A stretch of 64,000 nucleotides of DNA. Source: an uncultured Gammaproteobacteria bacterium (GTDB taxonomy: Bacteria > Patescibacteriota > Microgenomatia > JAMCZE01). The DNA is taken from contig CAZXMM010000001.1 in assembly GCA_964641255.1 (NCBI GenBank), positions 745,890 to 809,889 on the forward strand. Direction: 5' to 3'. The notes below the pieces were generated by a model, which saw nothing but the letters and a program-made list of their open reading frames with translations, was not told the DNA's origin and searched no databases. Position numbers and translations under genes: made by a program. Shown here piece by piece: positions 7,332-55,441 of the stretch; position 1 is the first letter of the stretch; every line of letters starts with the position of its first letter.

Positions 7332-7352
7332 TAGTCAAAGACATCTTTTTTA

Positions 7353-7437: not shown

Positions 7438-7493
7438 TTGATACTTTAGGATTCAAGCCGATAATTAAAATTGGCGAACAGCATTATTTAAAA

Positions 7494-7946: not shown

Positions 7947-8026
7947 AGCTAACTAGTCAGCAAATATATTTAGCTTGCCACTCCCTAATTGTTTTCCGTT
8001 TCTACACTAAATAAACTGCTCTTGTT

Positions 8027-8686: not shown

Positions 8687-8720
8687 CACCCCGGTAGCAA
8701 TATGCTACAGTAATAGAGCC

Positions 8721-15397: not shown

Positions 15398-15411
15398 TAT
15401 GATCAAAAAAT

Positions 15412-34599: not shown

Positions 34600-34603
34600 A
34601 GTG

Positions 34604-35440
34604 TTACAGACTGCCTCCGGAAAAAATCACATTATCAAAAAAGGCCGGTAGAGCTGTAGGACTTTGCACCGCCTGCAACCGCTTAACCGTATTATTAGTC
34701 GTGGTGGCGGTCGCCTCAATCACTATCGTTTGAGTACTAAGAGCGGTACTACCACTAGGGTTACGGCCACACACAGCTACATTAACGCTAGTAACTGTTG
34801 CGTCACCCAAGGGCTTAACTCGAATTAGAAGGGGAGTAGGACTCGTCCCAATGGCTACATTCTGGGCACAAGAGGTCATGCCCGAAACATTACAGATAAC
34901 GCTGGCACAACTGCTGGCGGCTACCGCATTATGAGCGGCTAATGTATTGGCTGGAGTCGACCCCGACAACCCTTTGGCCACTCGTCTAGTCAGCTGATTA
35001 GCGGCGTTAAGTGAGATTATTTCTAGGGAAGCGTTATTGTCGTTCCACAAAACATCGACGGCAGAGATGCCCGCTGGATTACCCGTAGGCAGCGTCACCT
35101 GAAAAACATCGTCTTTGGCTAAAGAGGTCATTAGAGCATAATTTTGACTGGCCGGACAGATTAGGTAAGTGAGACTCTGGATACCATCAATCGGACTAGC
35201 CACCAAATCAAAACTCGTGGGGGTAGCGCAGCGAATAGTGCCATTTTGCACATAATCAGCTATGGCCGCCGACAAAGCCGCCTCGGCCGCGGCATACGCG
35301 CGAACACCCGAATCAACATAGCTAACTTGACGTAAGTCAGACAGGGTGCGTGACGCTGCTGACAGACCGACGGTAAGGCCCAATAGTCCTAAAAGTAGGG
35401 CTAGAACCGTGATCTGACCAGAACGTAGGCAGTTGCGCAT
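34604..35440 (-). CDS. PilX-like / pilus-associated protein with N-terminal hydrophobic segment
   Basis: N-terminus QITVLALLLGLLGLTVGLSAASRTL resembles PilX_N. Sits in the pilin operon. Confidence 0.45.
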   Translation of the reverse strand: MRNCLRSGQITVLALLLGLLGLTVGLSAASRTLSDLRQVSYVDSGVRAYAAAEAALSAAIADYVQNGTIRCATPTSFDLVASPIDGIQSLTYLICPASQNYALMTSLAKDDVFQVTLPTGNPAGISAVDVLWNDNNASLEIISLNAANQLTRRVAKGLSGSTPANTLAAHNAVAASSCASVICNVSGMTSCAQNVAIGTSPTPLLIRVKPLGDATVTSVNVAVCGRNPSGSTALSTQTIVIEATATTTNNTVKRLQAVQSPTALPAFFDNVIFSGGSL

Positions 35441-35489
35441 GGTTCCATTATGGAGAGTTCTGAGTACTTTGGCAAGATTAGGCTTACGC

Positions 35490-36044
35490 CTAATATTGTC
35501 TGGGGGTGATCGTGTCAGTTAAAACAATCCGGCCACACTGATCAGCTCTCGATACTCCAATTTTTTGTTGGACTGTCAACACCACGGTAATTGCACCAGA
35601 AGTCAAATCTCTAGTCACTTGCGCACCTGAGGTAGTACAAGAAGTTCCACAAGCGCCGCTGGGACAATCGAGGACTGAAACGCCCGATGAGGATAATTGC
35701 TCCGTTGGAGTACATACTCCGCCAGAAGCCTGTCCCCAAAGAACAATACCGTCTGTTCCAAAGCGATAACAGTCCAGAGGATTGGTACAGTTTGCCGCTT
35801 GGTAAGTAGTGACCGTGATCCCAGGAGAGACCGTCTGACTACCAACTGAGGTAGCACAAGCACTAGTGCGAATTGAATCCCGAAAACGCTGCAAAATAAT
35901 GCTGGCATTTTGCCGCACTTCACCACGCACTGCGGCTTGATTACTATTCTGAATCACCTGGAGAAAAAAAGTCGTCCCTGCTAGCATCAAAATACCAAAT
36001 ACCGCAAGGACAATGACCAGTTCGACTAAGGTAAAGCCTTTCAT
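35490..36044 (-). CDS. Type IV pilin-like protein (minor pilin / pseudopilin)
   Basis: Prepilin leader and cleavage motif MKGFTLVELVIVLAVFGIL. Confidence 0.7.
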   Translation of the reverse strand: MKGFTLVELVIVLAVFGILMLAGTTFFLQVIQNSNQAAVRGEVRQNASIILQRFRDSIRTSACATSVGSQTVSPGITVTTYQAANCTNPLDCYRFGTDGIVLWGQASGGVCTPTEQLSSSGVSVLDCPSGACGTSCTTSGAQVTRDLTSGAITVVLTVQQKIGVSRADQCGRIVLTDTITPRQY

Positions 36045-36047
36045 TGA

Positions 36048-36527
36048 TTAGTAATTATAAAAATAGGTATCCAGAGCGATAGTTTGGCATTTACTGCGGT
36101 CCATCCAAGCGACTTTGGCACTCACTCTGATCTGGGCGCTACTAACTTGGGAGACTTGCACCGAGCGGTAAAATGGTGTGGCGGCGATGGCATAGCCAGT
36201 AGTACAAGAGCTGACACAACTGGCGGCCGCCGCCCCACACGAGCTTAGATAGCCGTCAGCGTAACAACCCCCGGCACAGACCTTGGCTAGAGTACTTTGA
36301 AAACGATTAGCTTGATAATAACCCCGCGCCTGCTCCAGGGCTTGCTCGGCGTAACTCGCCGCTTGGCTCCGTAGGGAAGCGCTGGTGCTGGCTGCCCCAA
36401 TTTGGATGGTGAGCCCCACAATGGCCACCCCGATGACCGAGAGAATGAGTAGTGCGATCACAGTCTCGATTAAAGAAATACCGGCAGTTAGGGGGTGGGT
36501 GGTTGCCATAAAATTACAAACTATCAA
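36048..36527 (-). CDS. Pseudopilin-like protein
   Basis: TAGISLIETVIALLILSVIG is a G/ISLIE prepilin motif. Confidence 0.55.
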   Translation of the reverse strand: MIVCNFMATTHPLTAGISLIETVIALLILSVIGVAIVGLTIQIGAASTSASLRSQAASYAEQALEQARGYYQANRFQSTLAKVCAGGCYADGYLSSCGAAAASCVSSCTTGYAIAATPFYRSVQVSQVSSAQIRVSAKVAWMDRSKCQTIALDTYFYNY

Positions 36528-37029
36528 TTCGTATCACTCTCATATTGTCACCACGAATTATCACTGACCGGGTAGTAGTCCCGTTCGTAACGGTGATCGT
36601 CAGATCACTCGCTGATAACACTCCTGCAGTGCAAGCAAAACCATTACTTCCAGTGCAACTGCCACAGAGGTTGGTGGGAGAACTAAAGCTAGTTAAATTA
36701 GGGTTAGCAAAACAAATCGTTCCACTACTGGGTGACAGAGTAACTCCCACCGGTAAATTCACAACCGTTCCGTCAGGCAGTTGATAAGATGTAGAGCTAA
36801 CTAGTGTTACCGCCCGCACCGATGAGCCGGCCGCGCCATTTTGCGCCTGGTTCTGGGCCGCCCGCAAACTACTCATTAGTTGGTTTTGGGCGTCAATCAC
36901 TAGCTGAGAGCGGTTAAAAGTCCCGAAGCCAAAAAAGGCAATGGTCGCGATAATACCAATCACCGCCATGACGATGATTAGTTCAATAGTGCTATAACCC
37001 CCACTAAAGTGAGCAGTTCTTGTGACCAT
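36514..37029 (-). CDS. Pseudopilin-like protein
   Basis: GGYSTIELIIVMAVIGIIA prepilin motif. Confidence 0.6.
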   Translation of the reverse strand: MVTRTAHFSGGYSTIELIIVMAVIGIIATIAFFGFGTFNRSQLVIDAQNQLMSSLRAAQNQAQNGAAGSSVRAVTLVSSTSYQLPDGTVVNLPVGVTLSPSSGTICFANPNLTSFSSPTNLCGSCTGSNGFACTAGVLSASDLTITVTNGTTTRSVIIRGDNMRVIRIDSL

Positions 37030-37757
37030 AGGGCAGCGATAAGAGTACCAACAATTAGAAACGGTCCTAAAGGAATTGTGGCAGAAAGCTTGGTCTTCTT
37101 CAAGAGAAGCAAGAGGGTAGCCACCAGTCCGCCACTGACAAACGCCACCCAGAGAGCCACTAAAATATTGGGCCAGCCTAGAAGGAGTCCCATCACCAAC
37201 GCCAATTTAACATCGCCCAGTCCCATACCCCTAAACCAAGTAATTAAGACGACAAGAAAGAACCCCAGCGAGGTGGCTAACCCGATTAGTAAATAAGCAG
37301 GAGAAATTGCTAGGCCAGCCAGGCCCGAGAGAATTAACATTTCGTCGGGAATTAAGCCGTAGTGTAAATCGGCAAAAAAGATGACGATAAAACTAAAAGC
37401 GATTAGGCAGAGTAGTAGGGAAGTCACAGCGGCCGTTGGGGTCAGGACAAAACACAGGACAAAGGACAAAGCTGTTAGCCCCTCAACTAGGGGGTAGTGC
37501 CAGCCAATTGGTCGGTGGCACCACCGGCATTTACCGCGCAACAGACAAAAGGAGAGCAGGGGGATATTATCTCGGGCCGCAATCTGTTTTTGGCATTTTG
37601 GACACAGACTGCGCCCCTGCCAAAATTTGGGAGCCTTAGGATCACAGAGTCTATAGATTAGAACGTTGGCAAAACTACCAAAAGCTAGCCCGATTATACC
37701 TATTAAAAGTAAAAAAAGTGGCCCTTCAGTCACCAGTCTATCATACCAAAATCCCAC
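36978..37757 (-). CDS. pilD: Prepilin peptidase (A24 family)
   Basis: GSFANVLIYRL...CPKCQ...IPLLSF zinc-binding box, multiple TM helices, DxxxG-like region. Confidence 0.85.
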   Translation of the reverse strand: MGFWYDRLVTEGPLFLLLIGIIGLAFGSFANVLIYRLCDPKAPKFWQGRSLCPKCQKQIAARDNIPLLSFCLLRGKCRWCHRPIGWHYPLVEGLTALSFVLCFVLTPTAAVTSLLLCLIAFSFIVIFFADLHYGLIPDEMLILSGLAGLAISPAYLLIGLATSLGFFLVVLITWFRGMGLGDVKLALVMGLLLGWPNILVALWVAFVSGGLVATLLLLLKKTKLSATIPLGPFLIVGTLIAALWSQELLTLVGVIALLN

Positions 37758-37798
37758 ACCTCCTGGTGTGGGATTTGTGTATCAACTCTGAAAAACAA

Positions 37799-38233
37799 CT
37801 ACTCAGCGACGCAATTGGGATCAGCAGTAGTGTTAGTGTTATAACCACCAGCGTTGGCGGTGGAAATTTTCCAAGTTGAGGCCGACGCTGAAGCCGTCTC
37901 CAGCTCTGCACAAATAGCGTAAGTGCCAGCGGCACTGTTAACGCTATAAGTATAGGCGCCCGCATCTTGCGGATCAACCGGAATTCTAGGAATGTATGTG
38001 GGGGCTAAGTCCGCTGTTACAGCAGGATAAGTCTGAGTCTCGGAATAATAAGCCTGAAGAGCTGTTCCCAAGGCGCGGACATCGGCTTTTCTCTTGGTAT
38101 CTCTCGTTTGGGCCTGTACCCGAGTGAACGAAATAACACCAATAGTTGCTAAAATAGCAATGACGGTGACCACAATCATCAGCTCTACCAGCGTAAATCC
38201 TTTTTTGTGATTTGATTTGATATAGTGTGTCAT
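37799..38233 (-). CDS. Type IV pilin (major-pilin-like), paralog 3
   Basis: KGFTLVELMIVVTVIAILATIG. Confidence 0.8.
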   Translation of the reverse strand: MTHYIKSNHKKGFTLVELMIVVTVIAILATIGVISFTRVQAQTRDTKRKADVRALGTALQAYYSETQTYPAVTADLAPTYIPRIPVDPQDAGAYTYSVNSAAGTYAICAELETASASASTWKISTANAGGYNTNTTADPNCVAE

Positions 38234-38259
38234 TTGTTCACCCCCTTTCCCTTTGACAA

Positions 38260-38757
38260 TTATTTTGGACCATCGAATGTATATAATTTTGTTTCGCCAC
38301 CTATAGTGATGGTGTAGGTATTGTTAGCGGCAGTGTAAGTATAAGTGTAGGCGACGTCACTGCCAGAGTAAGCTTTAATTCCAGTCACGGTGCCCACAGC
38401 GGAAGCGGCGGTAGAAACATTAGCCACTGTTCCACTGGGGTCAGTAAGCGCAGTGGCACCGTAACACCGCCCAAAAGTAACTGGGCTGCCAAGTGCCGGA
38501 TTATTACTGGTATTACCTCCCAGGTTGGTCCAATCAAAACTCGCGTTGCCCGGATAAGAACCCAGCTCGGCCTGAAAACACTCTAGGGCTGCTTGGAGCC
38601 CCTTCACAACTTGGGCCCGCTTAACGTCTCTTGCAGCTTTTTGGGCTTGACCAATACCCAAAAGAGCGAGGGTGGAGAGCACTCCAATCACCGTAATGAC
38701 AATCATGAGCTCAATGAGGGTAAAGCCGCGGTGCAGATTAAATCGGGCAGATTTCAT
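38260..38757 (-). CDS. Type IV pilin, paralog 2
   Basis: RGFTLIELMIVITVIGVLSTLA. Confidence 0.8.
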   Translation of the reverse strand: MKSARFNLHRGFTLIELMIVITVIGVLSTLALLGIGQAQKAARDVKRAQVVKGLQAALECFQAELGSYPGNASFDWTNLGGNTSNNPALGSPVTFGRCYGATALTDPSGTVANVSTAASAVGTVTGIKAYSGSDVAYTYTYTAANNTYTITIGGETKLYTFDGPK

Positions 38758-38803
38758 ATAACTTTAGTGTGGCGCCTTTTGACTACCCTGTCAAGAGGAC
38801 GGA

Positions 38804-39415
38804 TTAGTTAGGACTTTTGAAAATAACTGTACCCCCAGATTCTTTAGCTAAACAGAGCTCATAATCCTGCCCCGTGGCTGAGGAAGTTTTATAAGCATAA
38901 CCGGCGGGAATGGGACCGGTATCACTAAAGGATGCATAGTAATAGCTGCCATCTGGCCAACCACACGGATTGCTACTTCCCAACCACGCCGCTGTGCGCC
39001 AGTCTGTTCCTGGGTGATTAAAATAGTTCAACTCCAAACAAGTAGCGGCGTAAGCATTGGAAAAAATTTGCCCTTTGGACGGATCCTTGTACTGAGAAGC
39101 GTCAATATAGCCGCGGCCATGGAGTTGAGCAATCATAGTCGCGAACCCCGAATTACTGTTAACCCGCAGCGGATTACATCCCCCCACATTAACTGTGTCG
39201 CCAGATTTTGGGTAGTTTTTGGCATCGGCATAGTAACGTTCCAGCGCCCCTTGCAATCCGGTCATAAACTGAACGCGCTGGGTGTCCCTGGCTGAGGCTT
39301 GAAGTTTTCCTACTCCTACTAAGGCTAAAGTGGACAGTATGCCAATCACCAAAAGAACAATCATGATTTCAATGAGACTAAAACCCTTAGTTATGGCTAC
39401 TAAATTTTTCCTCAT
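38804..39415 (-). CDS. Type IV pilin, paralog 1
   Basis: KGFSLIEIMIVLLVIGILSTLA. Confidence 0.8.
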   Translation of the reverse strand: MRKNLVAITKGFSLIEIMIVLLVIGILSTLALVGVGKLQASARDTQRVQFMTGLQGALERYYADAKNYPKSGDTVNVGGCNPLRVNSNSGFATMIAQLHGRGYIDASQYKDPSKGQIFSNAYAATCLELNYFNHPGTDWRTAAWLGSSNPCGWPDGSYYYASFSDTGPIPAGYAYKTSSATGQDYELCLAKESGGTVIFKSPN

Positions 39416-39418
39416 ACT

Positions 39419-40630
39419 TTATTTAATCACATTTACCAAATTAAACATCGGTAGCAGTACAGCAATAGCCAGTCCTCCAACCATGCCGCCCATAAGAAGT
39501 ATCATTAGCGGCTCAAGCGCAGTGGTTAGCACCTTAACTTTGCGCTCACTGGATTCCTGATAAAACTTGGCTAGTCGGTCCAAACTATCATCCAGAGTCC
39601 CAGTTTCCTCGCCAATGGACATTAGCTGGGACACCATCAGGGGGAAGTGGGGATTGCGCCGAATTGCCAGAGATAGAGGCAGTCCCTTTTCCACGCTTTT
39701 AGAAGCGGTCACTACACCTTCGCGAAAATAGTTATTACCCATAGTGGCCGAGACGATTTTGAGAGAATCAATAATTGCTACCCCCGAGGAGAGTAGTGTC
39801 CCTAGGGTCCGAGCAAAAATTGTCAGGGCGACTTCTTCACTTAAGGGACCAAAAACAGGAAAGTGGAAAAAAGCGTTATTGATGAGCATGTCACTCATTG
39901 GGTTTTTTCGCAGCCCGCGGTAAATAATAAAGAGCAGGATAAGTAAGCCCACAACTACAAAAAGGTAATGGGTTAGTAGGTCTGACGCCCCAATTAGTAC
40001 TCTAGTCGGCAGCGGTAACTCCGCCCCAAATTGCGAATAGACGTCGGCAATTTTGGGAACAACGCTCGTCAACATAAAAAAACCAATCGCTCCCATAGCG
40101 ATCACCACAATCATGGGATAAATCATCGCTCCTTTAATTTTGCTTTTAAAATCAAGTTGGTTTTCCAGCGTATCAGCCAAGCGGGAAAGAGTCTCATCTA
40201 CTTTGCCCGAAGCCTCACCCGCTTTGATTAGACTGACATACAGGGTATTAAATACTAGGGGGTAGCGACTCATTGCATTAGATAGGGCGCTGCCTGACTG
40301 GACATCTCGCAGCAGTGAGCGCACCACTTCTTTGAAATGATTACTTTTGACCTGGAGAGCAAGATCAGCGAGGGCATCGGTAAGCGGCAGTCCGGTGGAC
40401 AGCATTGTCGCCAGTAACCTAGTAAAGGTAGCTACCTCTCGCTCAGACACCCCACTACCAAAAGAAAACGACAAGCTACGAAATTCAAAGCTTTTTTTTT
40501 CGGTAACTGTGATTACAAAATAACCGTGAGCCTGAAGAGCTTTCGCCGCTCCGGCTTCATTGACGTTCTCAATAGTACCTTTAACGATGGCTCCGGACTT
40601 GTCTTGGACTTTATATAGATACTGCTTCAT
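39419..40630 (-). CDS. pilC: Type IV pilus inner-membrane platform protein PilC (GspF family)
   Basis: Two GspF repeats, 403 aa, 3 TM helices. Confidence 0.85.
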   Translation of the reverse strand: MKQYLYKVQDKSGAIVKGTIENVNEAGAAKALQAHGYFVITVTEKKSFEFRSLSFSFGSGVSEREVATFTRLLATMLSTGLPLTDALADLALQVKSNHFKEVVRSLLRDVQSGSALSNAMSRYPLVFNTLYVSLIKAGEASGKVDETLSRLADTLENQLDFKSKIKGAMIYPMIVVIAMGAIGFFMLTSVVPKIADVYSQFGAELPLPTRVLIGASDLLTHYLFVVVGLLILLFIIYRGLRKNPMSDMLINNAFFHFPVFGPLSEEVALTIFARTLGTLLSSGVAIIDSLKIVSATMGNNYFREGVVTASKSVEKGLPLSLAIRRNPHFPLMVSQLMSIGEETGTLDDSLDRLAKFYQESSERKVKVLTTALEPLMILLMGGMVGGLAIAVLLPMFNLVNVIK

Positions 40631-40649
40631 AGTAGGGGAGGCGTCTTGG

Positions 40650-41702
40650 CTACATTTTATCGATCAACCGACTGACATCTTCAGTATTGGTAGCGTAGTC
40701 CATCGCAGTTTCCCGAGTAATTTTGCCACCCTTGACTAAAGAGGCCAGAGACATATCCATGGTTAACATCCCCAGCTCTCCCGACGTCTGAATGACATTG
40801 TCAATCATGTGGGTCTTGCCTTCCCGAATAATCGATCTCACCCCCGAAGTGGCGATTAAGATTTCTGTGCCCGGAACTCGGCCACCACCCAAAGCTGGTA
40901 ACAGTCTTTGGGAAATTATGGCTTCCAAAACATTGGAGAGCTGGAGTCTGACCTGGGCTTGTTGGAAATCCGGAAACACGTCAACCATCCGGTCAATGGA
41001 CTGAGCAGCAGAATTAGTATGAAGAGTGGCAAACACCAAATGGCCGGTTTCAGCAATGGTAATAGCGGCGGCAATTGTTTCAAAATCACGCATTTCCCCC
41101 ACCAACACGACGTTGGGGTCTTCCCGCAGCGCCGCCCGCAGAGAATTGTTCCAAGACAAAGTGTCGAATCCTACTTCCCGCTGGGACACTAGCGCCTTGC
41201 CTTGGGAATAAATGTACTCAATTGGGTCTTCAATAGTTAAAATATGGCCACCCTGTTGCTGGTTGATCTCTTCGATAATGGCCGCTAGGGTTGTCGATTT
41301 ACCGTGTCCGGTCGGGCCGGTGACTAGAATAAATCCCTGTCTTAAGGTCGTAAAACTGTGGCAGATTTTGGGCAAATTGAGTTCATCAATAGTACGAATT
41401 TTCAGGGGGATAAGCCGAAAGGCGAGGGCTTCAGATCCTTTTTGGAAATAGGCGTTGACCCGGAAACGACTCCTCCCATGAGAGTAGCCAAAATCTAATT
41501 CTTTATTGCGCTCCAGAGCCGTTTTTTGGTCCGCTGAGATCAGGGGAGCTAGAAGAGCAGTGATATCTTCCCCGGTTAAAATATTGTCGGCAACTTTGAT
41601 TAGGGTGCCGTCTATTCGAATAGTCGGACTGTAACCTGCCACCAAATGGAGGTCAGAGGCATTTCTAGCAATAGTCGTCTCTAGTAATTCTTGGATGGAC
41701 AT
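40650..41702 (-). CDS. pilT: Twitching-motility retraction ATPase PilT
   Basis: ASDLHLVAGYSPTIRIDG, Walker A GPTGHGKSTT, 350 aa. Confidence 0.9.
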   Translation of the reverse strand: MSIQELLETTIARNASDLHLVAGYSPTIRIDGTLIKVADNILTGEDITALLAPLISADQKTALERNKELDFGYSHGRSRFRVNAYFQKGSEALAFRLIPLKIRTIDELNLPKICHSFTTLRQGFILVTGPTGHGKSTTLAAIIEEINQQQGGHILTIEDPIEYIYSQGKALVSQREVGFDTLSWNNSLRAALREDPNVVLVGEMRDFETIAAAITIAETGHLVFATLHTNSAAQSIDRMVDVFPDFQQAQVRLQLSNVLEAIISQRLLPALGGGRVPGTEILIATSGVRSIIREGKTHMIDNVIQTSGELGMLTMDMSLASLVKGGKITRETAMDYATNTEDVSRLIDKM

Positions 41703-41705
41703 AAC

Positions 41706-43448
41706 TTAATCTTGCGCTACTCGAATAACTTCCTCAATAGTGGTTACACCTTCCAGCGCTTTTAAATAACCGTCTTGTTTCATGGTCAACATACCCTCTT
41801 CCACCGCCCGCTTTTCAATATCACTAGCGGAAGCGTGACTAAGAATGAGTTTGGCAATCGCGTCACTGATTGGTAACACCTCATAAATTCCCACCCGGGT
41901 TAAAAATCCGCTGCTGCCACATTCGCCGCAACCTTTACCTCGGTAGAGCAGTATCTTGCCATCTTTCTCCTTATCACTGGGGAAATATTTGCCCAGCACG
42001 TTCTTAATATCCGCTACCATTAGAGCCGGTGGCTCAAACGATTCTCGACAGTGGGGACAGATTTTTCGCAAAATTCTCTGCCCGAGAACCGCATTAAGTG
42101 ACGAGGCGAGAAGAAACGGTTCTGCTCCCAAATCCAAAAACCGAGGGATCGATCCGGAAGCATTACTAGTGTGCAGTGTCGAAAAAACTAAGTGACCAGT
42201 TAAAGCCGCTTGAATGGCCAGGTCGGTAGTCTCACGATCCCGGATTTCGCCGACCAAAATTACGTTGGGATCCTGCCGTAAAAAGGACCGTAGGGCCGCA
42301 GCAAAAGTTAGTCCCGCCGCCGGATTGACTTGCACCTGGTTGACACCAGGAATTTGGTACTCTACCGGGTCTTCGATAGTGACCGTGTTAACCCGCACCG
42401 AACTGGTTTTTGATAGTACCGAGTAGAGGGTGGTGGTTTTTCCTGAGCCGGTCGGACCACAAACAACAATGATCCCGTGGGGACGAAGAATCGCCATTTC
42501 TAAATTTTTGAGAGCTAAACCCCGAAGTCCCAAATCAGTAAAGGTGGGGACAGCTCCACTTTTGCGCAACAACCGAAGAACTACCTTTTCGCCATGAACG
42601 GTTGGGAGAGTCGAAACCCGGATATCAATTTCTCCGTTACCGTCCTCAGACTTAAAATTAAACCGGCCGTCTTGGGGGATCCGCTTTTCGTCAATTTTTA
42701 ACCCAGAAAGAATTTTAACCCGAGAAACCAGCGCGTCGTGAATCGCGGCTGGTAAAATCAGCTTCTCTTGCAAAATACCGTCGATTCGGTAGCGGATCCG
42801 AGTATGATCTTCTAGTGGTTCGATATGAATATCTGATACCCGTGCCTTAAGAGCAAAATCCAAAATTGAGCTGACAATTTTAGCTACCGGTGCATCACGA
42901 ATAATATCTGATCTAGCCAGTTCGGCGTTTTCTGCCTGCTTACTAATGGGTGAGTCCTTGAGAGCATCCCTAACTTCGGAAGTAAGATTTTGAGTCGTGT
43001 GAGTAGAAATCACCGCTTTGATAGCATCGAGTGGTGCCAAATACGGACGAATTTTTTTACCGGTCTTACGTTCCAGGAAAGTTATCGCCGTTAAGTCCAG
43101 TGGATCGACCATAGCCATAGATAGTGTGTTACTGCCCTGATCAAAAGCAAACGGTACCGCCTGGTACTCTTCCATGACGGTTTGGGACACAAGACTGTAG
43201 ACTTCCGGAGAAATAAGATGGGTCGAGAGGTCAAAGGTGGGTACCCCAAGAATAGCCGCTCTGGCTGCCAGTATCTCGTGCGCAGTAGCAAACCCTCGCT
43301 CTTGCAAGATCGCCTCCACGCTTTTGCCGGTATTGTCGTGCTCCAGTTTGACCAAATTTTTTTGGTCTTCAGTGATAATTTTATTGACCAGCAAAATATC
43401 CTCAATCGAACCAAGTGCTGGAGATGATTGGGCTTGGGCAGAATCCAT
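41706..43448 (-). CDS. pilB: Type IV pilus assembly ATPase PilB (GspE family)
   Basis: N-terminal GSPII-like domain, Walker A GPTGSGKTTT, tetracysteine CPHC...CGEC. Confidence 0.9.
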   Translation of the reverse strand: MDSAQAQSSPALGSIEDILLVNKIITEDQKNLVKLEHDNTGKSVEAILQERGFATAHEILAARAAILGVPTFDLSTHLISPEVYSLVSQTVMEEYQAVPFAFDQGSNTLSMAMVDPLDLTAITFLERKTGKKIRPYLAPLDAIKAVISTHTTQNLTSEVRDALKDSPISKQAENAELARSDIIRDAPVAKIVSSILDFALKARVSDIHIEPLEDHTRIRYRIDGILQEKLILPAAIHDALVSRVKILSGLKIDEKRIPQDGRFNFKSEDGNGEIDIRVSTLPTVHGEKVVLRLLRKSGAVPTFTDLGLRGLALKNLEMAILRPHGIIVVCGPTGSGKTTTLYSVLSKTSSVRVNTVTIEDPVEYQIPGVNQVQVNPAAGLTFAAALRSFLRQDPNVILVGEIRDRETTDLAIQAALTGHLVFSTLHTSNASGSIPRFLDLGAEPFLLASSLNAVLGQRILRKICPHCRESFEPPALMVADIKNVLGKYFPSDKEKDGKILLYRGKGCGECGSSGFLTRVGIYEVLPISDAIAKLILSHASASDIEKRAVEEGMLTMKQDGYLKALEGVTTIEEVIRVAQD

Positions 43449-44200: not shown

Positions 44201-44213
44201 AATGACCATCGTT

Positions 44214-46133
44214 ATGCCAAAGAATGACGACCAATATACCGCTGAAAATATCCAAGTCCTAGAAGGGTTGGAACCAGTCCGCAAGCGCCCCGGAATGTAT
44301 ATTGGCTCAACTGATGAGAAGGGATTAAACCAGCTGTTTAAGGAAATCGTCGACAATAGCGTGGACGAGGCTCTCGCCGGTTATGGCAAAAAAATCTTCG
44401 TTACTGTCAATAAAGATGGTTCACTAACTGTCAAAGACGAAGGCCGGGGAATTCCCACCGGTATTAATCCCAAACATAAACTTTCGGGAGTAGAGCTAGC
44501 AATGACCAGACTGCACGCTGGCGGGAAGTTTGACGCCCATGCCTATAAGACTTCAGGCGGGCTGCACGGGGTAGGAGCCGCTGCAACCAACGCGCTTTCC
44601 GTCTGGATGGTTGTGGAAGTGGACCAGAATGGCAAAAAATTCCGCCAGAGCTACAAAATGGGTGTCCCTGACGGCCCCCTTAAAGAAGTTGGGAAAGCAA
44701 ATGGAACCGGAACTACCAGTACCTTCCTTCCTGACCCAGAAATCTTTTCCACGGTGGATTGGAACTTTAAAACGATTAAAGAGGAACTGCGTAATTGGGC
44801 TTATCTGGTACCAAAACTACTATTCTCCCTTAAGGACGAGCGCACCGGTGAGGAGTATCACTTTTATTTTGAGGGAGGAATCAAGTCTCTCGTGGCTCAC
44901 TTAAACGCCAACAAGCAGACGATTTCCGATATTTTTTATGTCAGTAAAGACGTCGAAACCCCGGTGTCTCCAGTAACAATTGAAGTAGCCATGCAGTATA
45001 ACGGCGACTTTGGCGAACGGCTGCGCTCCTTTGTCAATATTATTGACACTCCCGATGGGGGCTCCCACGTTGCTGGTTTTCGCTCGGCCCTAACCCGGTC
45101 AGTTAATGATTACGGCAAAAAAATTGGCGCCATTAAGGACAATCAGGAAAGCTTTATTGGTGACGACCTCCGGGAAGGCCTAACCGCCGTCGTTTATATC
45201 AAAATGTCAGCCGACCGACTCCAGTTTGAGTCACAAACCAAAACTAAACTTAATAACGCTGAGATCCAACCGGCTGTAAACTCAGTTGTTAAAGAAGCAC
45301 TGGATGCCTATTTTGAAGAGAATCCCAGGGAAGGCCGGGCAATTCTAGAAAAAGTGTTTTTGGCGGCCAAAGCCCGGTTAGCCGCGAGGGCAGCCAAGGA
45401 CGCTGTCATCCGTAAGGGCGCCCTGGAAGGCTCAACTCTTCCCGGCAAACTGTCCGATTGCCAATCTCGCGACCCTGCCGAAAGCGAAATTTTTATCGTT
45501 GAGGGCGATAGTGCCGGAGGCTCAGCCAAGCAAGGTAGAGATAGAAAATTTCAGGCGATTTTACCGCTGTTTGGTAAACCCCTGAACACGGAGCGGGCCA
45601 GGATTGATCAGATAATAAACTATGACAATTTTAAGTCCCTGATTATTGCCCTGGGAACGGGGATCGCTGATCAGTTTAACATCAGCAAGCTCCGTTATCA
45701 CCGCATTATCATTATGGCTGATGCTGACGTGGACGGCCGCCATATTTGTACCATCCACCTCACTTTTTTGTACCGCCACTTAACCGAGCTTGTCACTGGT
45801 GGTTATGTCTATATTGCTATGCCACCTCTTTATAAGTTGGAGTGGGGTAAAGGTAATAAAAAATACGTCTATACTGACGAAGAGAAAGACGCCGCCCTCA
45901 AGGAGATTGGTGAAGTTAAGACTAACGTACAACGTTACAAGGGCCTTGGCGAAATGAACGCCGAGGAACTCTGGGAAACTACACTCAATCCCAAAAATCG
46001 ATTTTTAAAGAGGGTGACTGTAGAAGATAGCGAAAAAGCCAACGAGACTTTTATTATGCTCATGGGAGACGAAGTACCACCAAGAAGAAAGTTTATTCAG
46101 ACTCACGCCAAGACAGCGACGCTAGATATTTAA
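44214..46133 (+). CDS. gyrB: DNA gyrase subunit B
   Basis: VLEGLEPVRKRPGMYIGST, GHKL ATPase, TOPRIM EGDSAGG. Start set at the second ATG (44214); the track ORF begins at 44202. Confidence 0.95.
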   Translation: MPKNDDQYTAENIQVLEGLEPVRKRPGMYIGSTDEKGLNQLFKEIVDNSVDEALAGYGKKIFVTVNKDGSLTVKDEGRGIPTGINPKHKLSGVELAMTRLHAGGKFDAHAYKTSGGLHGVGAAATNALSVWMVVEVDQNGKKFRQSYKMGVPDGPLKEVGKANGTGTTSTFLPDPEIFSTVDWNFKTIKEELRNWAYLVPKLLFSLKDERTGEEYHFYFEGGIKSLVAHLNANKQTISDIFYVSKDVETPVSPVTIEVAMQYNGDFGERLRSFVNIIDTPDGGSHVAGFRSALTRSVNDYGKKIGAIKDNQESFIGDDLREGLTAVVYIKMSADRLQFESQTKTKLNNAEIQPAVNSVVKEALDAYFEENPREGRAILEKVFLAAKARLAARAAKDAVIRKGALEGSTLPGKLSDCQSRDPAESEIFIVEGDSAGGSAKQGRDRKFQAILPLFGKPLNTERARIDQIINYDNFKSLIIALGTGIADQFNISKLRYHRIIIMADADVDGRHICTIHLTFLYRHLTELVTGGYVYIAMPPLYKLEWGKGNKKYVYTDEEKDAALKEIGEVKTNVQRYKGLGEMNAEELWETTLNPKNRFLKRVTVEDSEKANETFIMLMGDEVPPRRKFIQTHAKTATLDI

Positions 46134-46157
46134 TTTTTAATTATTTATTTTTAATTT

Positions 46158-46694
46158 ATGAATTTATTGCACGACATCCCCGCGGGCGACCCCAATAAAC
46201 TGGTTAATGTGGTAGTGGAGATTCCCATTGGCAGTAGAATTAAGTACGAATACAATAAGGAGCTGGAAACTATTGCCGCCGACCGCTTCCTCTATACCGC
46301 GTTTACTTATCCTTTTAACTACGGCTTTGTGCCCCAAACCTGGAGTGAAGATGAGGACGCTCTCGACATGGTCGTAATTGCCAGTGAACCGGTAGCTACC
46401 GGAGTGGTGATTGAATGCCGCGTCATTGGCGGGCTGCAAACTGAGGATGAAGAGGGCAACGACGCCAAACTCATTGCCGTCCCTAAGGGCAAAATCGACC
46501 CAATGTTCGCTAAAGTAGACACCCTCAACGACGTCCCCGAGGCTTGGAAGAATAAAATTAAGCATTTCTATGAGAACTATAAAAGTATCGAGCCGGGCAA
46601 GTGGGTAAAAGTAACTGATTGGATGAGTAAAGAAGACGCCGTCAAAACTGTTGAAGAGTGCGTGGTAAGGTACAAAAAAGAAGTTAACCACTAA
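46158..46694 (+). CDS. ppa: Inorganic pyrophosphatase (family I)
   Basis: VVVEIPIGSRIKYEY and DEDALDMVV (DxDPxD-like). Confidence 0.9.
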   Translation: MNLLHDIPAGDPNKLVNVVVEIPIGSRIKYEYNKELETIAADRFLYTAFTYPFNYGFVPQTWSEDEDALDMVVIASEPVATGVVIECRVIGGLQTEDEEGNDAKLIAVPKGKIDPMFAKVDTLNDVPEAWKNKIKHFYENYKSIEPGKWVKVTDWMSKEDAVKTVEECVVRYKKEVNH

Positions 46695-46706
46695 GCTTAT
46701 CTGACT

Positions 46707-49172
46707 ATGGCCGATATTGGAAAAATCATTGATTCGGAAATTTCTGCAGAAATGCAGAGCTCGTATCTTGACTACGCTATGTCAGTGATCGTAGCGCGGG
46801 CTCTCCCTGATGTTCGGGATGGGCTCAAGCCAGTACACCGCCGGATCATTTACGCGATGCACCAGATGGGTCTGCACCACGGTGCTAAGTACGTCAAATC
46901 GGCTGCAGTGGTGGGGCAAGTGATGCGCGACTATCACCCTCATGGTAATTTGGCGATTTATGACGCCATGGCCCGGATGGCTCAAGATTTTTCGCTGCGT
47001 TACCCTCTAGTCGATGGTCAAGGCAATTTTGGTTCGATGGACGGGGATCCGCCGGCCGCCGAACGCTACACTGAAGCCAGGCTGTCGAGTATTGCCGATT
47101 ATCTTCTCATCGACATTGACAAAGAGACAGTTGATTTTGGACCCAACTATTCCAATACCGAGGTGGAGCCGCTGTTTTTCCCCGCCCTCTTACCCAACTT
47201 ACTTTTAATGGGCGCTGACGGCATTGCCGTTGGTATGGCCACTAAAATTCCGCCACACAATCTAAGTGAGGTCGTGGACGCGGTCGTGGCCATGATTGAT
47301 AAAGGTGTTGAGGCAACGACTCTGGAAGATTTGGTCCAGCACATTAAAGGGCCGGATTTCCCCACAGGCGGTATCATCTATGACCACAAGGAAATCCTGG
47401 CCGCTTATGGCACGGGCAAAGGAAAGATTGTGGTCCGGGCCAAAACGGAAATTGAGGAAGTAGCTGGTGGCAAATCGGCCATCATCGTCACTGAGATTCC
47501 CTATCAAGTTAATAAAGCCAGTTTGGTAGCCAAAATTGCTGATTTGGTTCGCGATAAAAAGCTCGATGGCATTTCAGATTTACGGGACGAATCGGATCGC
47601 CACGGCATCAGGGTCTATATCGAACTCAAGCGCGACGCCAGGCCCCAGTCGGTGCTAAACAATCTGTTTAAACACACTGATTTACAGACCTCTTATCCTG
47701 TCAACGTCGTCGCCTTAATCGACCAGACTCCTCAAACTCTCACGCTCAAAGTTATTTTAGAAGAGTACCTCAAACACCGCCAAAATATTGTCCGCCGGCG
47801 CAGTGAATTTGAGCTTAGAGAAGCTAAAGCCAGAGAACATATTTTAGAAGGATTAAAGATCGCGGTTGACCACATTGACGAAGTCATCGCCATTATTAAA
47901 AAAGCGGAGTCAGCTGAAGTGGCCAAAGGCAAACTGATGGACCGCTTTAAATTATCCGAGTTGCAGGCCACCGCGATTTTGGATATGCAGCTGCGCCGCT
48001 TGGCCGCCCTAGAGCGCCAAAAAATTGAGGATGAACTAGCTATGATCCGAGAAACCATTAGCTATTTGGAAAATCTCCTTAAGCACCCGGATTTGATGAT
48101 GAAAGTGATTCGGGACGAACTTCTAAAAATGAAGGAAAAGTTTGGCGATCCCAGACGCACCAAGGTGGTTAAAGGGAAAATTGACGAATTTTCGGAAGAA
48201 GACCTTATTCCTAACGAACCAATGGTGGTCACGGTCACTAAAACTGGCTATGTTAAAAGACTATCACCCGCTTCTTACCGAGCCCAAGCCCGGGGAGGTA
48301 AGGGAGTCACCGGCATGACTACCAAAGAGGAAGACGAGATTGAGCACTTAACCGCTGCAAACGCCCATGATAATATTTTGTTCTTTACCAATAAGGGTAA
48401 GGTCTACCAGACCAAAGTTTATGAACTGCCCGAGGGTAGCCGCCAAGCTAAAGGCCAGGCGGTAGTCAATATTATTAATAGTGAGCAAGGTGAGCCGGTA
48501 CAATCAATCCTCACCTACGATAATGCCTCAGCCAAGGCGCAAAATCATAATAATATTTTTCTAGTGACCCGGCACGGTACAGTTAAGAAAACCAAAATTG
48601 ACGACTTTGCCAATATCCGCAAAAATGGCCTGACGGCGATAAAACTGGAAAAGGACGATGAGCTGGTCTGGGCCAAATTTACTTCGGGAGATGATGATAT
48701 TTTGCTCGTAACTAAACACGGTCAATCTATTCGTTTCTCCGAAAAGGAAGTCAAGCCCCAGGGACGTGACACTATTGGAGTCAGAGGTATCAAACTCGGT
48801 AAAGATGATATCGTTGTTGGTATGGAATCAATTAATCCTTTGGATATCGCCAACAAAAAAATTATTGACCTGTTAGTAGTCTCGGAGAAGGGGATTGGGA
48901 AGCGGACCGAGTTTGGCCAGTTCCCCAAACAAAAACGGGCGGGATCCGGAGTCAAAGCCATGCAGCTCACTGCTAAAACCGGGCATTTGGTCGCGGCCAG
49001 AGCGGTGACCGAGCTGGTAGAACAACTAATTCTCACTTCGGCGAAAGCTATTGTTATTAAACTGCCACTGGAGTCAATCCCTAGACTTAGTCGCGCCACC
49101 CAAGGAGTTATTTTAATGCGCTTTAGTGAAGCTGGTGACCACGTAGCCGCCGTGGCAACACTGGAAAAATGA
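46707..49172 (+). CDS. gyrA: DNA gyrase subunit A
   Basis: [32 protein letters not shown], plus a C-terminal beta-pinwheel. Confidence 0.95.
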
Positions 49173-52010: not shown

Positions 52011-52598
52011 CTAGGCGGTAGTCACATTGAGGAGGGGAGAGGAAACGGTTTTTCCGGTTTGAACACTCCCCTTGTGAGCAAGGTACTCCGCCTGCAGTCT
52101 GCCACTTAATCTTTGGGCCAGCAAATCTTTAATGCTATAGAGTCTTTCTTCCTCGGGCTGGCTTAGATGTTGACCATCAAATAAACTTTTCTTGCGAGTT
52201 TTACTTTGCTCAAGGATTAAAACAGCCTCTTTCCAAAGCAAAAAATCTTTTTGCTTTTTGGCCTGTAAAGGGTACTTTTCAAAATGAGGAATAAGCTTAG
52301 TAATGATATCCATGCGGTCTCTGATATTAAAGTGTACCGCACCGTGTTTAACAATGGCATTAAGCCTTCCTGCTTGAAAAAACTTCTGCACCTTTTCTAG
52401 GATGGGTCTGTCATCTTCACGCATATGAAGGGAAAAATCAACCACCCAGTAACGATACGTAGAAATAGAATGCTTTCGTTTTTTATTCTCAGTGTTCACG
52501 ATCAGACAAAAACACCCTTCGCCGTCAATAAGTCCGGTCACATACCAGGGATCCAAACCAATCTTATTCTTTTGGACCTTTTTCATGGAATTCATCAA
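52011..52598 (-). CDS. LAGLIDADG-family homing endonuclease (single-motif type)
   Basis: LDPWYVTGLIDGEGCFCL is a canonical LAGLIDADG box; 195 aa. The start overlaps the upstream xer gene by about 35 nt. Local GC is lower than surrounding genes. Confidence 0.8.
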   Translation of the reverse strand: MMNSMKKVQKNKIGLDPWYVTGLIDGEGCFCLIVNTENKKRKHSISTYRYWVVDFSLHMREDDRPILEKVQKFFQAGRLNAIVKHGAVHFNIRDRMDIITKLIPHFEKYPLQAKKQKDFLLWKEAVLILEQSKTRKKSLFDGQHLSQPEEERLYSIKDLLAQRLSGRLQAEYLAHKGSVQTGKTVSSPLLNVTTA

Positions 52599-53517
52599 AT
52601 ACCTTCTTTAGCTGCGAATTGGTCACGTGAGTATAAATCTGGGTGGTCGCTACGTTTTTATGACCCAGCAACTCTTGGATCGAACGCAGGTCGGCTCCAT
52701 TTCGTAATAAATCAGTAGCTAGCGAATGTCGTAAAGTGTGTGGCGTAGCGTCGACAGGAATGCCGGCTCTTGCAATATATTTTTTAACCATCCTTTGAAT
52801 TGATCTAGGTGTCAAACGCATTCTCTCACCGTCATTATCAGATTCTCCAGCTTTTCCAGCTCTTCCGGCACGAGTATGAATAAAAAGTGGCTTCCAGGAA
52901 TCCTGACGCGTTGTAAGGTACCTAGCAAGGCATTCGGTGGCTCGAGTGGAGATAAATACCACCCTGGCCCGGCCACCTTTGCCAATAACGCTAAATTCTC
53001 TGGTTTCTAAATTTACTTGCCCCCGATTAAGTTTGGTCATTTCTGCTACTCGCAGGCCCGTACTGAATAATAATTCCAGAATGGACCGATCTCTTAACCC
53101 TTGCTCTGTACTAGTATCGGGTTTGGCAAAAAGTTGCTCTAAGTGATCGCGAGTTAAAAATTTCAAACTGCGGTCGCGATTTTTACCCAGTTCAATTTGG
53201 TCTGGCGCCAGCGTCTTATGACCCTTCTTCGTGAGATATCTGACAAATGCCCGAATGGCAATTAAAAAATAGCCTTGAGTTGATTTCGCTAACGGCCCCT
53301 TGATAGGATTTACGTAACGGCTTAAATAGAGTCGATAGTCTCTAATGATGTCCTCGGTCAAATCCTCGGGTTTGAGGACCTTACCCTGGCTAAAAAGCCA
53401 GCCACTGAAAGTCTCTAGATAATAACCATACATTTTGACCGTGAGTGGCGCCAGGTTGCGATCAAGCTCACAATATTCGAGGAAATCATTAATGTACTCC
53501 ACGAGTAATTTGTCCAT
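52564..53517 (-). CDS. xerC: Tyrosine site-specific recombinase, XerC/XerD-like
   Basis: N-terminal core-binding LxxFLxY..., C-terminal HTLRHSLATDLLRNGADLRSIQELLGHKNVATTQIYTHV (R..HxxR..Y). Confidence 0.85.
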   Translation of the reverse strand: MDKLLVEYINDFLEYCELDRNLAPLTVKMYGYYLETFSGWLFSQGKVLKPEDLTEDIIRDYRLYLSRYVNPIKGPLAKSTQGYFLIAIRAFVRYLTKKGHKTLAPDQIELGKNRDRSLKFLTRDHLEQLFAKPDTSTEQGLRDRSILELLFSTGLRVAEMTKLNRGQVNLETREFSVIGKGGRARVVFISTRATECLARYLTTRQDSWKPLFIHTRAGRAGKAGESDNDGERMRLTPRSIQRMVKKYIARAGIPVDATPHTLRHSLATDLLRNGADLRSIQELLGHKNVATTQIYTHVTNSQLKKVFDEFHEKGPKE

Positions 53518-53543
53518 AGAGTGCCGTTTTTATATTGTTAAAT
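53516..53543. other. Candidate dif-like recombination site ATAGAGTGCCG-TTTTTA-TATTGTTAAAT immediately upstream of the xer start
   Basis: The right arm TATTGTTAAAT matches the XerD-arm consensus TTATGTTAAAT at 9 of 11 positions. The left arm is poorly conserved. Placement next to xer parallels xerS/difSL-type single-recombinase systems. Confidence 0.25.
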
Positions 53544-54577
53544 CAATCTATATCACTCTTTTCCAAACGTCGTAATATCCTATAGTAGGGGAGGTGGGTG
53601 CCCAAACAACAGAGTGTACTGAACAATTTTACCCCCGCACCTACGAAATGCATTATAGTCCCAAAATAAGAACAAGCCAACAGAAGGGTTAAAAACACCC
53701 TTCTTCTCTCAGTTCGTGCTCGAATTACGTATAAGATACAATTTACGACACTAACACTTGAGCTTCCCTAGGGCTAACGGACCACTAAACTGGCACTTTG
53801 GTCAGACTGCAATAATGGGTCCAAGTTTCTCTCGAGAGAGAACCGTCTTTGACTCTTTTCGCCAGTGGCCGTACTATTTGCAAGCAAAAGACTGATTGGT
53901 GGTACGAATTATTTCCCGAATCACTTCCTTTACAGGGACTAATGGGTTTTTTGCCACGGATGAAGGCACACTTCTACTCTACTTTAGCGCCTGGATATAT
54001 TCTAAACCTTAAAGTTTGTGCGTAATTATTAGGGTTTAAAGTATCTTTGACAGGACCATTTTTGGAGCATAGTAGTGCGCTATTCCTATCTTTTCGAGCC
54101 TAATAACCCCGCTGATGGCACTACGACTAAGGGTCAGAGAGCATACCTAAAACTAGATGCTATTTAGCCCGTTAATACGCTCTATGTGATAAGTTTTGTG
54201 CGCAGTAAATGGCCACGCCCATCAGAGGAAGTTAGCGGGATTCGGCCTATTGCTACGCTCTACTTTAACACTTTGCGCTCACATTTTTACCTCCCAGGTA
54301 GGAGCGAGCAGAAGGTTTTGGAGCATAATAGTAGTCCAGACAGAGCAAAGCGAAGCTAAATAGGAATGCTGTTCGGGTTTTTTATGCTCTTTTATACCCT
54401 ATAACTGCAAGTTAGGCACGGATTAATGATATAGTTCGATATCCATGAAAAATACACGCTCAAACCTATGAAAACTCATCCACACGAGGCTATTTCTAAA
54501 CTATAGGGTGTTTTCTACTGCTCTCTTCCCCGCCTCAGTCAAGGAATTTTTTCCAAAAAGGAAGAAAAATTTTTAGA

Positions 54578-55441
54578 TTATCCACTCCAGCTGGTGGTTA
54601 ACAGTGTTAAGACAAATACTACGACGGCTACAATGACAAACTCGTTAGCCACTCGCCTATTAAGTTTCTCTCCCAAATGATATTGCACGATGCCGACTAA
54701 TTCATAAAAGATGGCTGTTAAGAAAAGCGCAAAAACAGAAACGCCGACCGGCCAAAAAGACAAAATGAAGGCCACCTCGGCCACTACCAGTGCAATAATT
54801 AAAGAGAAGTTCCGCACTTCACTCGTGATTTTTTCCTCAAGATTAACACTCCAAACGGCCTGAAAAGTAAGTAACAAAGTGACAGCAAAAACGAAAAGAA
54901 AATTGATATGACTCTCAAGATGAAAAGATGCAATGACAATGTAGAAAAGTAGACCCGTAGCTACACTCACCAGAAAGCCAATTGAGTGGGCCACCCGCAG
55001 TAGCTGAATACTCCGCTCTGCTGCCACATTAAAGATATTGGCTGTAAGTAGGCTCGCGTAATAGCCAACAATAAAGATCACTAGAAAAAACATTTTGACC
55101 AGCGTAGCCAATAAAAAGCTAGAGTCAGTTGAGAGTGATAGCCAAAGAATACTATCTATCCGGCTGGGTAACAGCGGATTAACCAGCGCCGCTCCAATCG
55201 CAAAAAGCGTAGGTAAAATGGGCAGGGTCAACCACTCGATACCGTTAAAATCCTCATCCCTGATCGCCCAGATAGTAGCAATTGTAGCTAAAAGAGCAAA
55301 GAGTGGCACTCGAATACGCCACTGCAAATACTGGCCAAAGGCCAGCCGGATAAGAATTATCCCGACCGCAAGCAGTCCGGTGGCAATGACAAAACGCTGT
55401 CGCTTGGAGAGAATGAGAAATTTAGGAAGAGTCAGTGTCAT
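54578..55441 (-). CDS. Hypothetical polytopic membrane protein (start uncertain; the track ORF extends to 55567, overlapping ruvC)
   Basis: At least 8 predicted TM helices, no known motifs. Confidence 0.5.
   Translation of the reverse strand: MTLTLPKFLILSKRQRFVIATGLLAVGIILIRLAFGQYLQWRIRVPLFALLATIATIWAIRDEDFNGIEWLTLPILPTLFAIGAALVNPLLPSRIDSILWLSLSTDSSFLLATLVKMFFLVIFIVGYYASLLTANIFNVAAERSIQLLRVAHSIGFLVSVATGLLFYIVIASFHLESHINFLFVFAVTLLLTFQAVWSVNLEEKITSEVRNFSLIIALVVAEVAFILSFWPVGVSVFALFLTAIFYELVGIVQYHLGEKLNRRVANEFVIVAVVVFVLTLLTTSWSG

Follow-up and report, generated by a model that had tools for sequence, protein, structure and literature searches.

A candidate dif site and a conserved noncoding array at a putative terminus locus of Patescibacteria

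What does a kilobase of gene-free DNA do next to a recombinase gene in the compact genome of an uncultured bacterium? We addressed this question in a 64-kb stretch of contig CAZXMM010000001.1 (hereafter the window), assigned to the Patescibacteriota. The gap extends from position 53518 to 54577 and is bounded by xer (52564–53517, minus strand), which encodes a tyrosine recombinase, and by a gene of the DUF5656 family (stop at 54578, minus strand). As reported in the initial annotation, which was made from the sequence alone, none of its frames contains an open reading frame (ORF) of at least 60 aa; the longest measures 58 aa. A large structured noncoding RNA (ncRNA), an integrative element represented by its att region or by decayed cargo, and a degraded pseudogene array had been put forward as candidates. 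We consider it probable, with appreciable room for doubt, that the gap acts as DNA in chromosome dimer resolution at the replication terminus, bringing together a dif site, the terminus position, autoregulation of xer, and a cis-acting array that may serve as accessory DNA.

The core of this locus is a 28-bp palindromic element on the minus strand (53724–53751), located ~210 bp upstream of the xer gene. It is composed of two imperfect inverted arms of 11 bp and an asymmetric 6-bp center, GTGTCGTAAAT-TGTATC-TTATACGTAAT. The dif site of Escherichia coli is GGTGCGCATAATGTATATTATGTTAAAT, and 17 of the 28 positions are identical in the window site. Its dimensions fall within those of dif sites (28–31 bp in total, imperfect inverted arms of ~11 bp, and an asymmetric center of 6–8 bp), defined as 11+6+11 in PMC5357621. 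Most relatives carry CGTCGTAAAT-TGTATC-TTTTACGACG, and the same succession of arm, 6-bp center, and arm is found in other lineages as GTCGCACAAT-aatact-TTTGCGAC and GTCGTTAAA-cataca-TTATACGAC, the variant of the site shifting with the Xer lineage. Seventeen nucleotides of dif, GTCGTAAATTGTATCTT, do not vary among six related genomes. The palindrome is also the only consensus helix predicted by RNAalifold in 39 aligned loci, and it shows no covariation. The arms do not co-vary in the manner of an RNA stem, the pair at position 5 being C/A in locus L005, T/G in L009, C/A in L010, and C/G in L012, against T/A in the clade of the window, a pattern that would fit two protein half-sites. The site is present in one perfect copy in the window, and the next best match has two mismatches in 15 nt and falls in coding-like sequence. 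This match, TTCGTAAATTGTATA at 15160–15174 (minus strand), agrees with the left half of dif at 13 of 15 positions, probably by chance, and lies in a second stretch without an ORF of 100 aa or more (14713–15411).

The adjacent gene encodes a single XerC/XerD/XerA-like recombinase of 317 aa, with a Phage_integrase domain (Pfam, 5.9e-41) and SAM-like N-terminal domains. Its best NCBIfam models are XerC (230 bits), XerD (226 bits), and XerA (198 bits), all under their equivalog cutoffs. The XerS model scores 130 bits for a cutoff of 267, below these three, and the protein does not qualify as an XerS ortholog. The 28-bp site is very probably dif, where this single XerC/D-like protein, encoded next door, would resolve dimers of the chromosome through an added crossover. 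We found no description of dif in the literature on the candidate phyla radiation (CPR), or Patescibacteria. In distant loci, among them L048, L111, and L135, the first ~170 nt of the homologous region contain a long inverted repeat, ACGGACGT...ATCCTATAGT...ACTATAGGAT...ACGTCCGT, which is absent from the clade of the window. Its outer arms (ACGTCCGTAAT) resemble the dif arm ACGTCGTAAAT and may be extra Xer half-sites.

How general is this organization? A DUF5656 gene, an ORF-free gap of 600–1080 nt, and xer follow each other on one strand in ~17 of the 47 genomes found through Xer, so that the comparison with related genomes proposed in the initial annotation revealed a conserved region. Between the gap of the window and those of its closest relatives, identity is restricted to patches of 60–67%, and a six-genome alignment (A1) displays sharp conserved blocks interrupted by variable segments, the strongest block being the 17 invariant nucleotides of dif. 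Scanning metagenome contigs for exact matches to this 17-mer yielded at least 120 loci. Among the matches listed, the 17-mer lies in ~60 loci 450–1440 nt downstream of a DUF5656 gene of the same strand, whose products are 26–65% identical, and in every case this gene is directly upstream of the noncoding unit. Conversely, xer is found within ~240 nt of the site only in the clade of the window; elsewhere it is 0.6–6.7 kb away or outside the fetched piece. As adjacency to xer is limited to one clade while linkage to DUF5656 is general, the conserved unit is the DUF5656 gene, a noncoding array, and the palindrome, and not an upstream region of xer. The order of the unit and several exact motifs are kept across genomes despite the divergence of the flanking proteins. 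In some relatives (L100, L129, L159, and others), 2.8–6.7 kb of other genes separate the site from xer. An integrated element at this place was considered and is not supported, no second copy of the site flanking the inserted genes. In viral contigs, seven matches to the 17-mer were found, none with the full palindrome, DUF5656, or Xer.

Does the site mark the replication terminus? The signature of a dif site at a terminus is the convergence on it of G/T-rich strands and of words similar to the FtsK-orienting polar sequences (KOPS). We counted words per strand in the flanks of 52 units, taking genes on either strand separately. The strongest polar word, AGGGGAG, occurs upstream of the site 60 times in forward and never in reverse orientation; downstream, the forward/reverse counts are 7/6 within the first kb, 2/5 between 1 and 2 kb, and 0/27 beyond 2 kb. 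The looser motif GGGGA[AG] behaves similarly whatever the direction of the genes: 125/17 upstream and 15/16 downstream in plus-strand genes (left-right difference, p = 4e-6), and 18/12 upstream and 11/47 downstream in minus-strand genes (p = 2e-4). It switches strand in the expected direction in all 13 loci with enough sites. For GGGNAGGG, counted in all genes, the figures are 24/3 upstream and 0/6 downstream. In an unbiased k-mer scan, AGGGGAG and GGGGAG ranked near the top for polarity, as did T-rich words, which also flip at the site. Within the window, GGGGA[AG] occurs 55 times on the plus and 22 times on the minus strand below dif, against 5 and 11 times above it, and the trend persists inside the opposed genes of the minus-strand block at 32–43 kb (8 on the plus, 3 on the minus strand). 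Within the units, AGGGGAG is present 24 times in forward and never in reverse orientation, and the purine boxes of the gap aim at dif. Skew was uninformative in the window, where GC skew follows gene strand and a regression on third-codon-position skew placed no breakpoint, and GC skew in the flanks is weak.

On these local flanks, both strand composition and FtsK-orienting words thus switch strand at the site. As polar and T-rich words converge on it from both sides, its identification as the dif site of the replication terminus is well supported. AGGGGAG, more loosely GGGGA[AG] or GGGNAGGG, is a candidate for the KOPS-like motif of this CPR lineage, and the purine boxes pointing at dif would bring a KOPS-guided translocase of the FtsK type onto the Xer-dif complex. 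The same convergence of polar oligomers, as on a chromosomal dif, decides the case of the integrative element: among the candidates of the initial annotation the att region comes closest, since a tyrosine-recombinase core site is indeed present, but this site behaves as that of a chromosomal terminus and is neither att nor cargo.

What, then, are the 0.8 kb that separate dif from the DUF5656 gene? On the minus strand, a purine box, CCCTATAGT, a DnaA-like box, TTTTCA(T/C) boxes, GATATCGAACTATATCA, CATAAAAAACCCGAA, TAYGCNCNAAA repeats, a spacer, and dif follow one another. In all relatives, the DUF5656 stop is followed by the KOPS-like purine box, GAGGCGGGGAAGAGAG (54521–54536), oriented toward dif, and then by CCCTATAGT (54500–54508). 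The DnaA-box-like 9-mer TGTGGATGA (54476–54484) differs by one mismatch from TGTGGATAA, the reverse of TTATCCACA. This perfect DnaA box is found once per unit and in one orientation in 40 of 64 homologous units, never in reverse, for 0.4 expected by chance. Two TTTTCA(T/C) boxes (54468–54474 and 54443–54452) and GATATCGAACTATATCA (54427–54443) form conserved blocks of the six-genome alignment; TTTTCACG occurs in 13 copies, spread over 10 of 18 related gaps. The box CATAAAAAACCCGAA (54372–54386) is near-invariant in the same alignment and has a related form, AAAACCCGAAA, in L007. CCTATAG-type palindromes are also among the elements of the array.

The remainder is a zone of degenerate repeats (53968–54338), in which TATGCTCCAAA is found at 54317–54327 and 54061–54071 and GCGCTAAAGTAGAG at ~53978–53992, all on the minus strand. 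It includes a full module, TTAGGCTCGAAAAG...TATGCTCCAAAAAT (54057–54104, minus strand), and two reverse-oriented copies, ATTTAGCC...TACGCTCTA (54162–54184 and 54240–54262, plus strand). All the strings quoted in the initial annotation were recovered, displaced by 1–2 nt at most. Among the dispersed repeats that it described, TTTTGGAGCATAGTAGT (54060–54076) and TTTTGGAGCATAATAGT (54316–54332), 16 of 17 nt identical, or TTTTGGAGCATA(G/A)TAGT, are the only ones improbable by themselves (an estimated ~0.01 expected per kb); the others are AAGTTTGTGCGTAA (54012–54025) with AAGTTTTGTGCGCAGTAA (54191–54208), and TACGCTCTA at 54176 and 54254. A 23-nt repeat of 74% identity is at chance level. Comparison with relatives identified the repeats of the gap as copies of a family-wide motif, TAYGCTCYAAA / TTTAGCCTCAAAA. 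With at most one mismatch, TAYGCTCYAAA occurs nine times in the window for 4.7 expected, and both perfect minus-strand copies are in the gap. In distant relatives, we counted 67 nonidentical copies of a 48-nt module, TTTAGCCTCAAAAAT-N6-TTTAGATTG-N6-CGCTCTAAAT, arranged in tandem with a period of 76–86 nt. The motif of the module is confined to the units, of which 38 kb hold 42 copies in forward and 6 in reverse orientation, against none in 227 kb of left flank and six in 197 kb of right flank. In 5 of 44 loci (L084, L106, L121, L159, and L160), a reverse TTTAGCCTC(A/G)AA motif lies at a fixed distance, ~176 to 189 nt, past dif, so that opposed copies flank the site.

Our best guess is that this array would bind architectural or accessory proteins, which would either shape the Xer synapse, as at the plasmid sites cer and psi, or arrest replication forks beside dif. 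A more specific proposal, which we regard as possible but tentative, is an undescribed Microgenomates DNA module organizing the terminus by recruitment of DnaA and of a TTTAG-binding protein. It would serve as a polar fork trap or as an accessory or topological filter for the single Xer, and the DUF5656 protein, always encoded alongside, might anchor the terminus at the envelope or septum.

Several readings compete with a DNA-acting locus. The gap might be transcribed from the minus strand, as a 3' extension of the DUF5656 mRNA or as a weakly structured protein-sponge RNA carrying UUUAG and UAYGCUCYAAA. Like OLE, GOLLD, ROOL, HEARO, and raiA, it is a long conserved ORF-free stretch in which conserved blocks alternate with variable segments. 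The motifs are strand-biased (GCTCTAA 45 vs. 8, TAGCCTC 52 vs. 18, AGAGAAG 39 vs. 7), the unit is G- and A-rich on the motif strand, no strong terminator follows DUF5656, and at one position of the apparent stem G-T outnumbers A-C (15 vs. 5). However, in contrast to these RNAs, Rfam gave no match at the gathering score in the window and 29 loci, nor at E ≤ 10 in the gap, and the folding energy is no better than that of shuffled sequences (z = +0.18 and −0.33). RNAalifold found 12 and 5 consensus pairs in 10 close homologs, and 39 distant homologs share only the dif palindrome. The arms of the apparent module hairpin (TTTAGAnnn / nnnTCTAAA) change independently: in 64 copies, three variable positions form 72 Watson-Crick pairs, for 73 ± 6.8 after permutation. 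The long-range complementary segments noted in the initial annotation do exist (CTGATGG at 54112 with CCATCAG at 54219, and GAGCATAA at 54321 with TTATGCTC at 54382), but such 7- to 8-nt pairs are individually at chance level. Moreover, reversed copies of the same motifs occur in the window and several relatives, a conserved 9-mer coincides exactly with a DnaA box, and no promoter is conserved in position at the 5' end. An ncRNA thus appears unlikely. Decayed DNA without function of its own, whether a pseudogene array or the remnant of a mobile element, could explain a region that is ORF-free and bears repeats, and the 2.8–6.7 kb of other genes between site and xer in some relatives; yet tblastx against 63 homologous units produced only matches of at most 38 codons, scattered over all frames and both strands, and Pfam searches with eight gap ORFs gave nothing at E ≤ 1 except one match at 0.09. 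The GC content of the gap (0.42), described in the initial annotation as lower than in the flanking genes, is barely below that of its surroundings (~0.40–0.49). Since the order of the elements and exact motifs outlast the divergence of the flanking proteins, no second copy of the site surrounds the inserted genes, and viral contigs lack the full site, decay is very improbable. The missing Rfam match, z-scores near 0, the lack of consensus helix and covariation, and the reverse-oriented copies led us to conclude that the motifs of the array would act as DNA, and not as RNA or as a dead gene.

A DNA role could also be that of a replication origin, possibly beside the terminus. An oriC is marked by a cluster of several DnaA boxes and by an unwinding element; it lies at the skew minimum and usually near dnaA. 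The conserved DnaA box, the AT-rich tracts and repeats, and the nearby gyrB and gyrA genes would suit an origin, as would the adjacent origin and terminus, or unidirectional replication, proposed for some Microgenomates with a linear cumulative GC skew (PMC7143001). However, polar and T-rich words converge on the site instead of diverging from it or remaining constant, which excludes for these genomes a bidirectional origin as well as a unidirectional arrangement of origin plus terminus. There is one DnaA box per unit and not a cluster, no dnaA homolog is present in the window or in any of the 167 fetched loci, and genes tend to converge on the site, without strong strand disparity in these genomes. 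An origin is therefore largely refuted, with hardly any probability left. The 0.8 kb might rather be a polar fork trap, where a contrahelicase would stop the fork of the other replichore just past dif. Tus-Ter of E. coli and RTP-Ter of Bacillus subtilis likewise have short polar repeats next to dif in the terminus region. In favor of a trap, the locus is at the terminus, and its modules follow each other in tandem, for the most part in the same orientation, and are restricted to this place. Furthermore, Ter-like opposed groups arise where reverse copies precede forward ones (L103, L135) or where a reverse copy follows ~185 nt past dif. On the other hand, no gene similar to tus or rtp was seen here, the repeats are mainly one-sided, most loci having no matching array across dif, and the modules are degenerate, ~70% alike within one genome, unlike the well-conserved known Ter sites. 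A fork trap is for us an improbable reading, a little more so than an ncRNA. We retain a dimer-resolution and terminus locus in which the array would be accessory or architectural DNA.

Is the recombinase gene itself controlled from this locus? In close relatives (L001, L002, L140, and L146), a promoter of the form TTGACA, 17–18 nt, TAnnnT has its −10 box ending 6–7 nt before the 17-mer. In more distant relatives (L007, L009, L010, L012, L017, and L038), the TTGACA of the xer promoter lies immediately next to a copy of the left arm, GTCGCACAAT. Because the xer promoter crosses the dif core in the former and a left-arm copy lies at the −35 box in the latter, Xer probably represses its own gene, autoregulation being the simplest reading; once bound to DNA, the recombinase would shut down xer transcription. 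In the window, the segment upstream of dif is a variable spacer (53752–53967, minus strand), at the end of which the promoter of the relatives is not obvious. Just downstream of dif, we read a purine box, GAGAGAAGAAGG, and then a hairpin (GAAGGGT/ACCCTTC) with a T-rich tail (53683–53712, minus strand); nearly all relatives have a GAGAAG(T/A)GG box after the palindrome. For xer, a consensus scan gave a sigma-70-like candidate promoter (TTGGCT, 17 nt, TATAAT; 10/12) at 53652–53680 on the minus strand. The xer leader (53542–53592, minus strand) contains two boxes of invariant alignment columns, GATATAGATTGAT (53543–53555) and TCCCCTACTATAGG (53579–53592), the latter unchanged in six relatives. 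Motifs akin to them, CCTATAGT and GATATAGTT, reappear at the far end of the gap. We rejected the possibility that the long-range inverted repeats I3 and I5 delimit an invertible segment, since these pairs are crossed and not nested and the relatives are collinear. The leader also holds a hydrophobic 51-aa ORF with a GTG start (53543–53698, minus strand), just after the purine box, whose DNA can be aligned in relatives but whose frame is not kept.

Known Xer systems share parts of this organization. In the XerS/difSL system of streptococci and lactococci, the site is at the terminus and G/A-rich polar words point to it, as here; the KOPS of Lactococcus lactis is GAAGAAG. According to the available part of PMC5357621, xerS and some archaeal xerA genes adjoin their sites as one module, like the single Xer-family gene and its own site in the window, and that part mentions no comparable upstream array for difSL. 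However, difSL measures 31 bp with an 11-bp center, against 6 bp in the 11+6+11 window site, and adjacency to xer is here restricted to one clade, whereas linkage of the site to DUF5656 and the 0.8-kb array is found everywhere. E. coli XerCD/dif has the same 28-bp 11+6+11 layout, with the center TGTATA in place of TGTATC, and words of the type recognized by its FtsK (GGGNAGGG) switch strand at sites of the window type too. Unlike in E. coli, one Xer gene is seen here, adjacent to the site, AGGGGAG is the strongest polar word, and a conserved noncoding array flanks one side. Noncoding DNA on one side of an Xer core is also a feature of cer and psi, where it binds "moonlighting" DNA-binding proteins. 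Their accessory sites, for ArgR or ArcA plus PepA, are located within ~180 bp of the core, all to one side, and resolution is independent of FtsK. By analogy, the DnaA box could act here as the ArgR box does in cer. The present array is in contrast chromosomal, three to four times longer (cer being a 280-bp noncoding region; PMC5357621), and made of unrelated motifs, although no search aimed at ArgR or ArcA boxes was made, and its KOPS-like polarity argues for the use of FtsK.

Some observations weigh against the interpretation of the gap as a dimer-resolution and terminus locus. The right arm of the window site, TTATACGTAAT, shows less symmetry than that of most relatives, and a promoter overlapping dif is not evident in the window, where the best candidate is downstream of dif (53680–53652). 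The metagenome loci were retrieved by exact match to the 17-mer, whose invariance in that set is so by construction. Polarity and copy number were established on the 64-kb window and on flanks of up to 12 kb, not on whole genomes; the loci are related and their left flanks syntenic, so that the polarity counts are partly pseudo-replicated, although the right flanks differ between loci. We know of no precedent for a single DnaA box at a terminus. The motif copies, which are 3:1 to 6:1 on one, purine-rich strand, would also fit a poorly structured transcript. Finally, the DUF5656 product is a polytopic membrane protein without an obvious DNA-binding domain, and no DNA-binding partner protein was identified.

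The Pfam DUF5656 gene occupies 54578–55411 on the minus strand. Its listed ORF extends to a TTG codon at 55567, but its true start is likely near 55411, as homologs align from residue 47–53 of that ORF. Genes for RuvC and YebC are found further along the same strand as xer and DUF5656. On the other side, the 3' end of xer overlaps by 35 nt a free-standing, single-domain LAGLIDADG_1 homing endonuclease ORF of 195 aa (52011–52598, minus strand), outside any rRNA intron. In L001 and L039, both close relatives, no such gene was seen downstream of xer, and for this reason we set aside the palindrome as a target of this endonuclease. In another close relative, L003, a 5S gene and a 23S rRNA gene interrupted by a group I intron (5776–8892) are located ~1–2 kb downstream of xer, beside the terminus locus. 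The gyrB and gyrA genes of the window (44202–49172) are 4–9 kb from dif and transcribed toward it, and the point of gene convergence (~50.3–50.5 kb) is 3 kb from dif. Among a block of co-oriented minus-strand ORFs (32313–43448) are type II/IV secretion (pilus-type) genes, which encode an ATPase (T2SSE) and a platform protein (T2SSF). The start of the listed ORF 7359–7946 (195 aa), which overlaps tRNA-Leu (7353–7437), is probably wrong. Exact-sequence look-ups with the Xer and DUF5656 proteins of the window gave no record. The Xer relatives from species-representative genomes all belong to Patescibacteria/CPR (Woesebacteria, WWE3, Shapirobacteria, Blackburnbacteria, and metagenome-assembled genomes [MAGs]); some third party annotation MAG records among them bear other taxon labels, such as "uncultured Gammaproteobacteria."

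The CPR/Patescibacteria are a huge and mostly uncultured group, in which the replication and segregation of tiny chromosomes are almost unstudied. The locus described here provides for them a candidate dif site, a candidate FtsK-orienting word, AGGGGAG, and a terminus landmark, all of which can help to verify MAG assemblies and to estimate growth rates from coverage. It also removes a tempting misannotation, that of a novel large ncRNA. Nothing in model bacteria leads one to expect a conserved gene-free array of 0.8 kb with exactly one DnaA box beside dif. Should this prove to be an accessory array or a fork trap, it would represent a new solution to terminus management.

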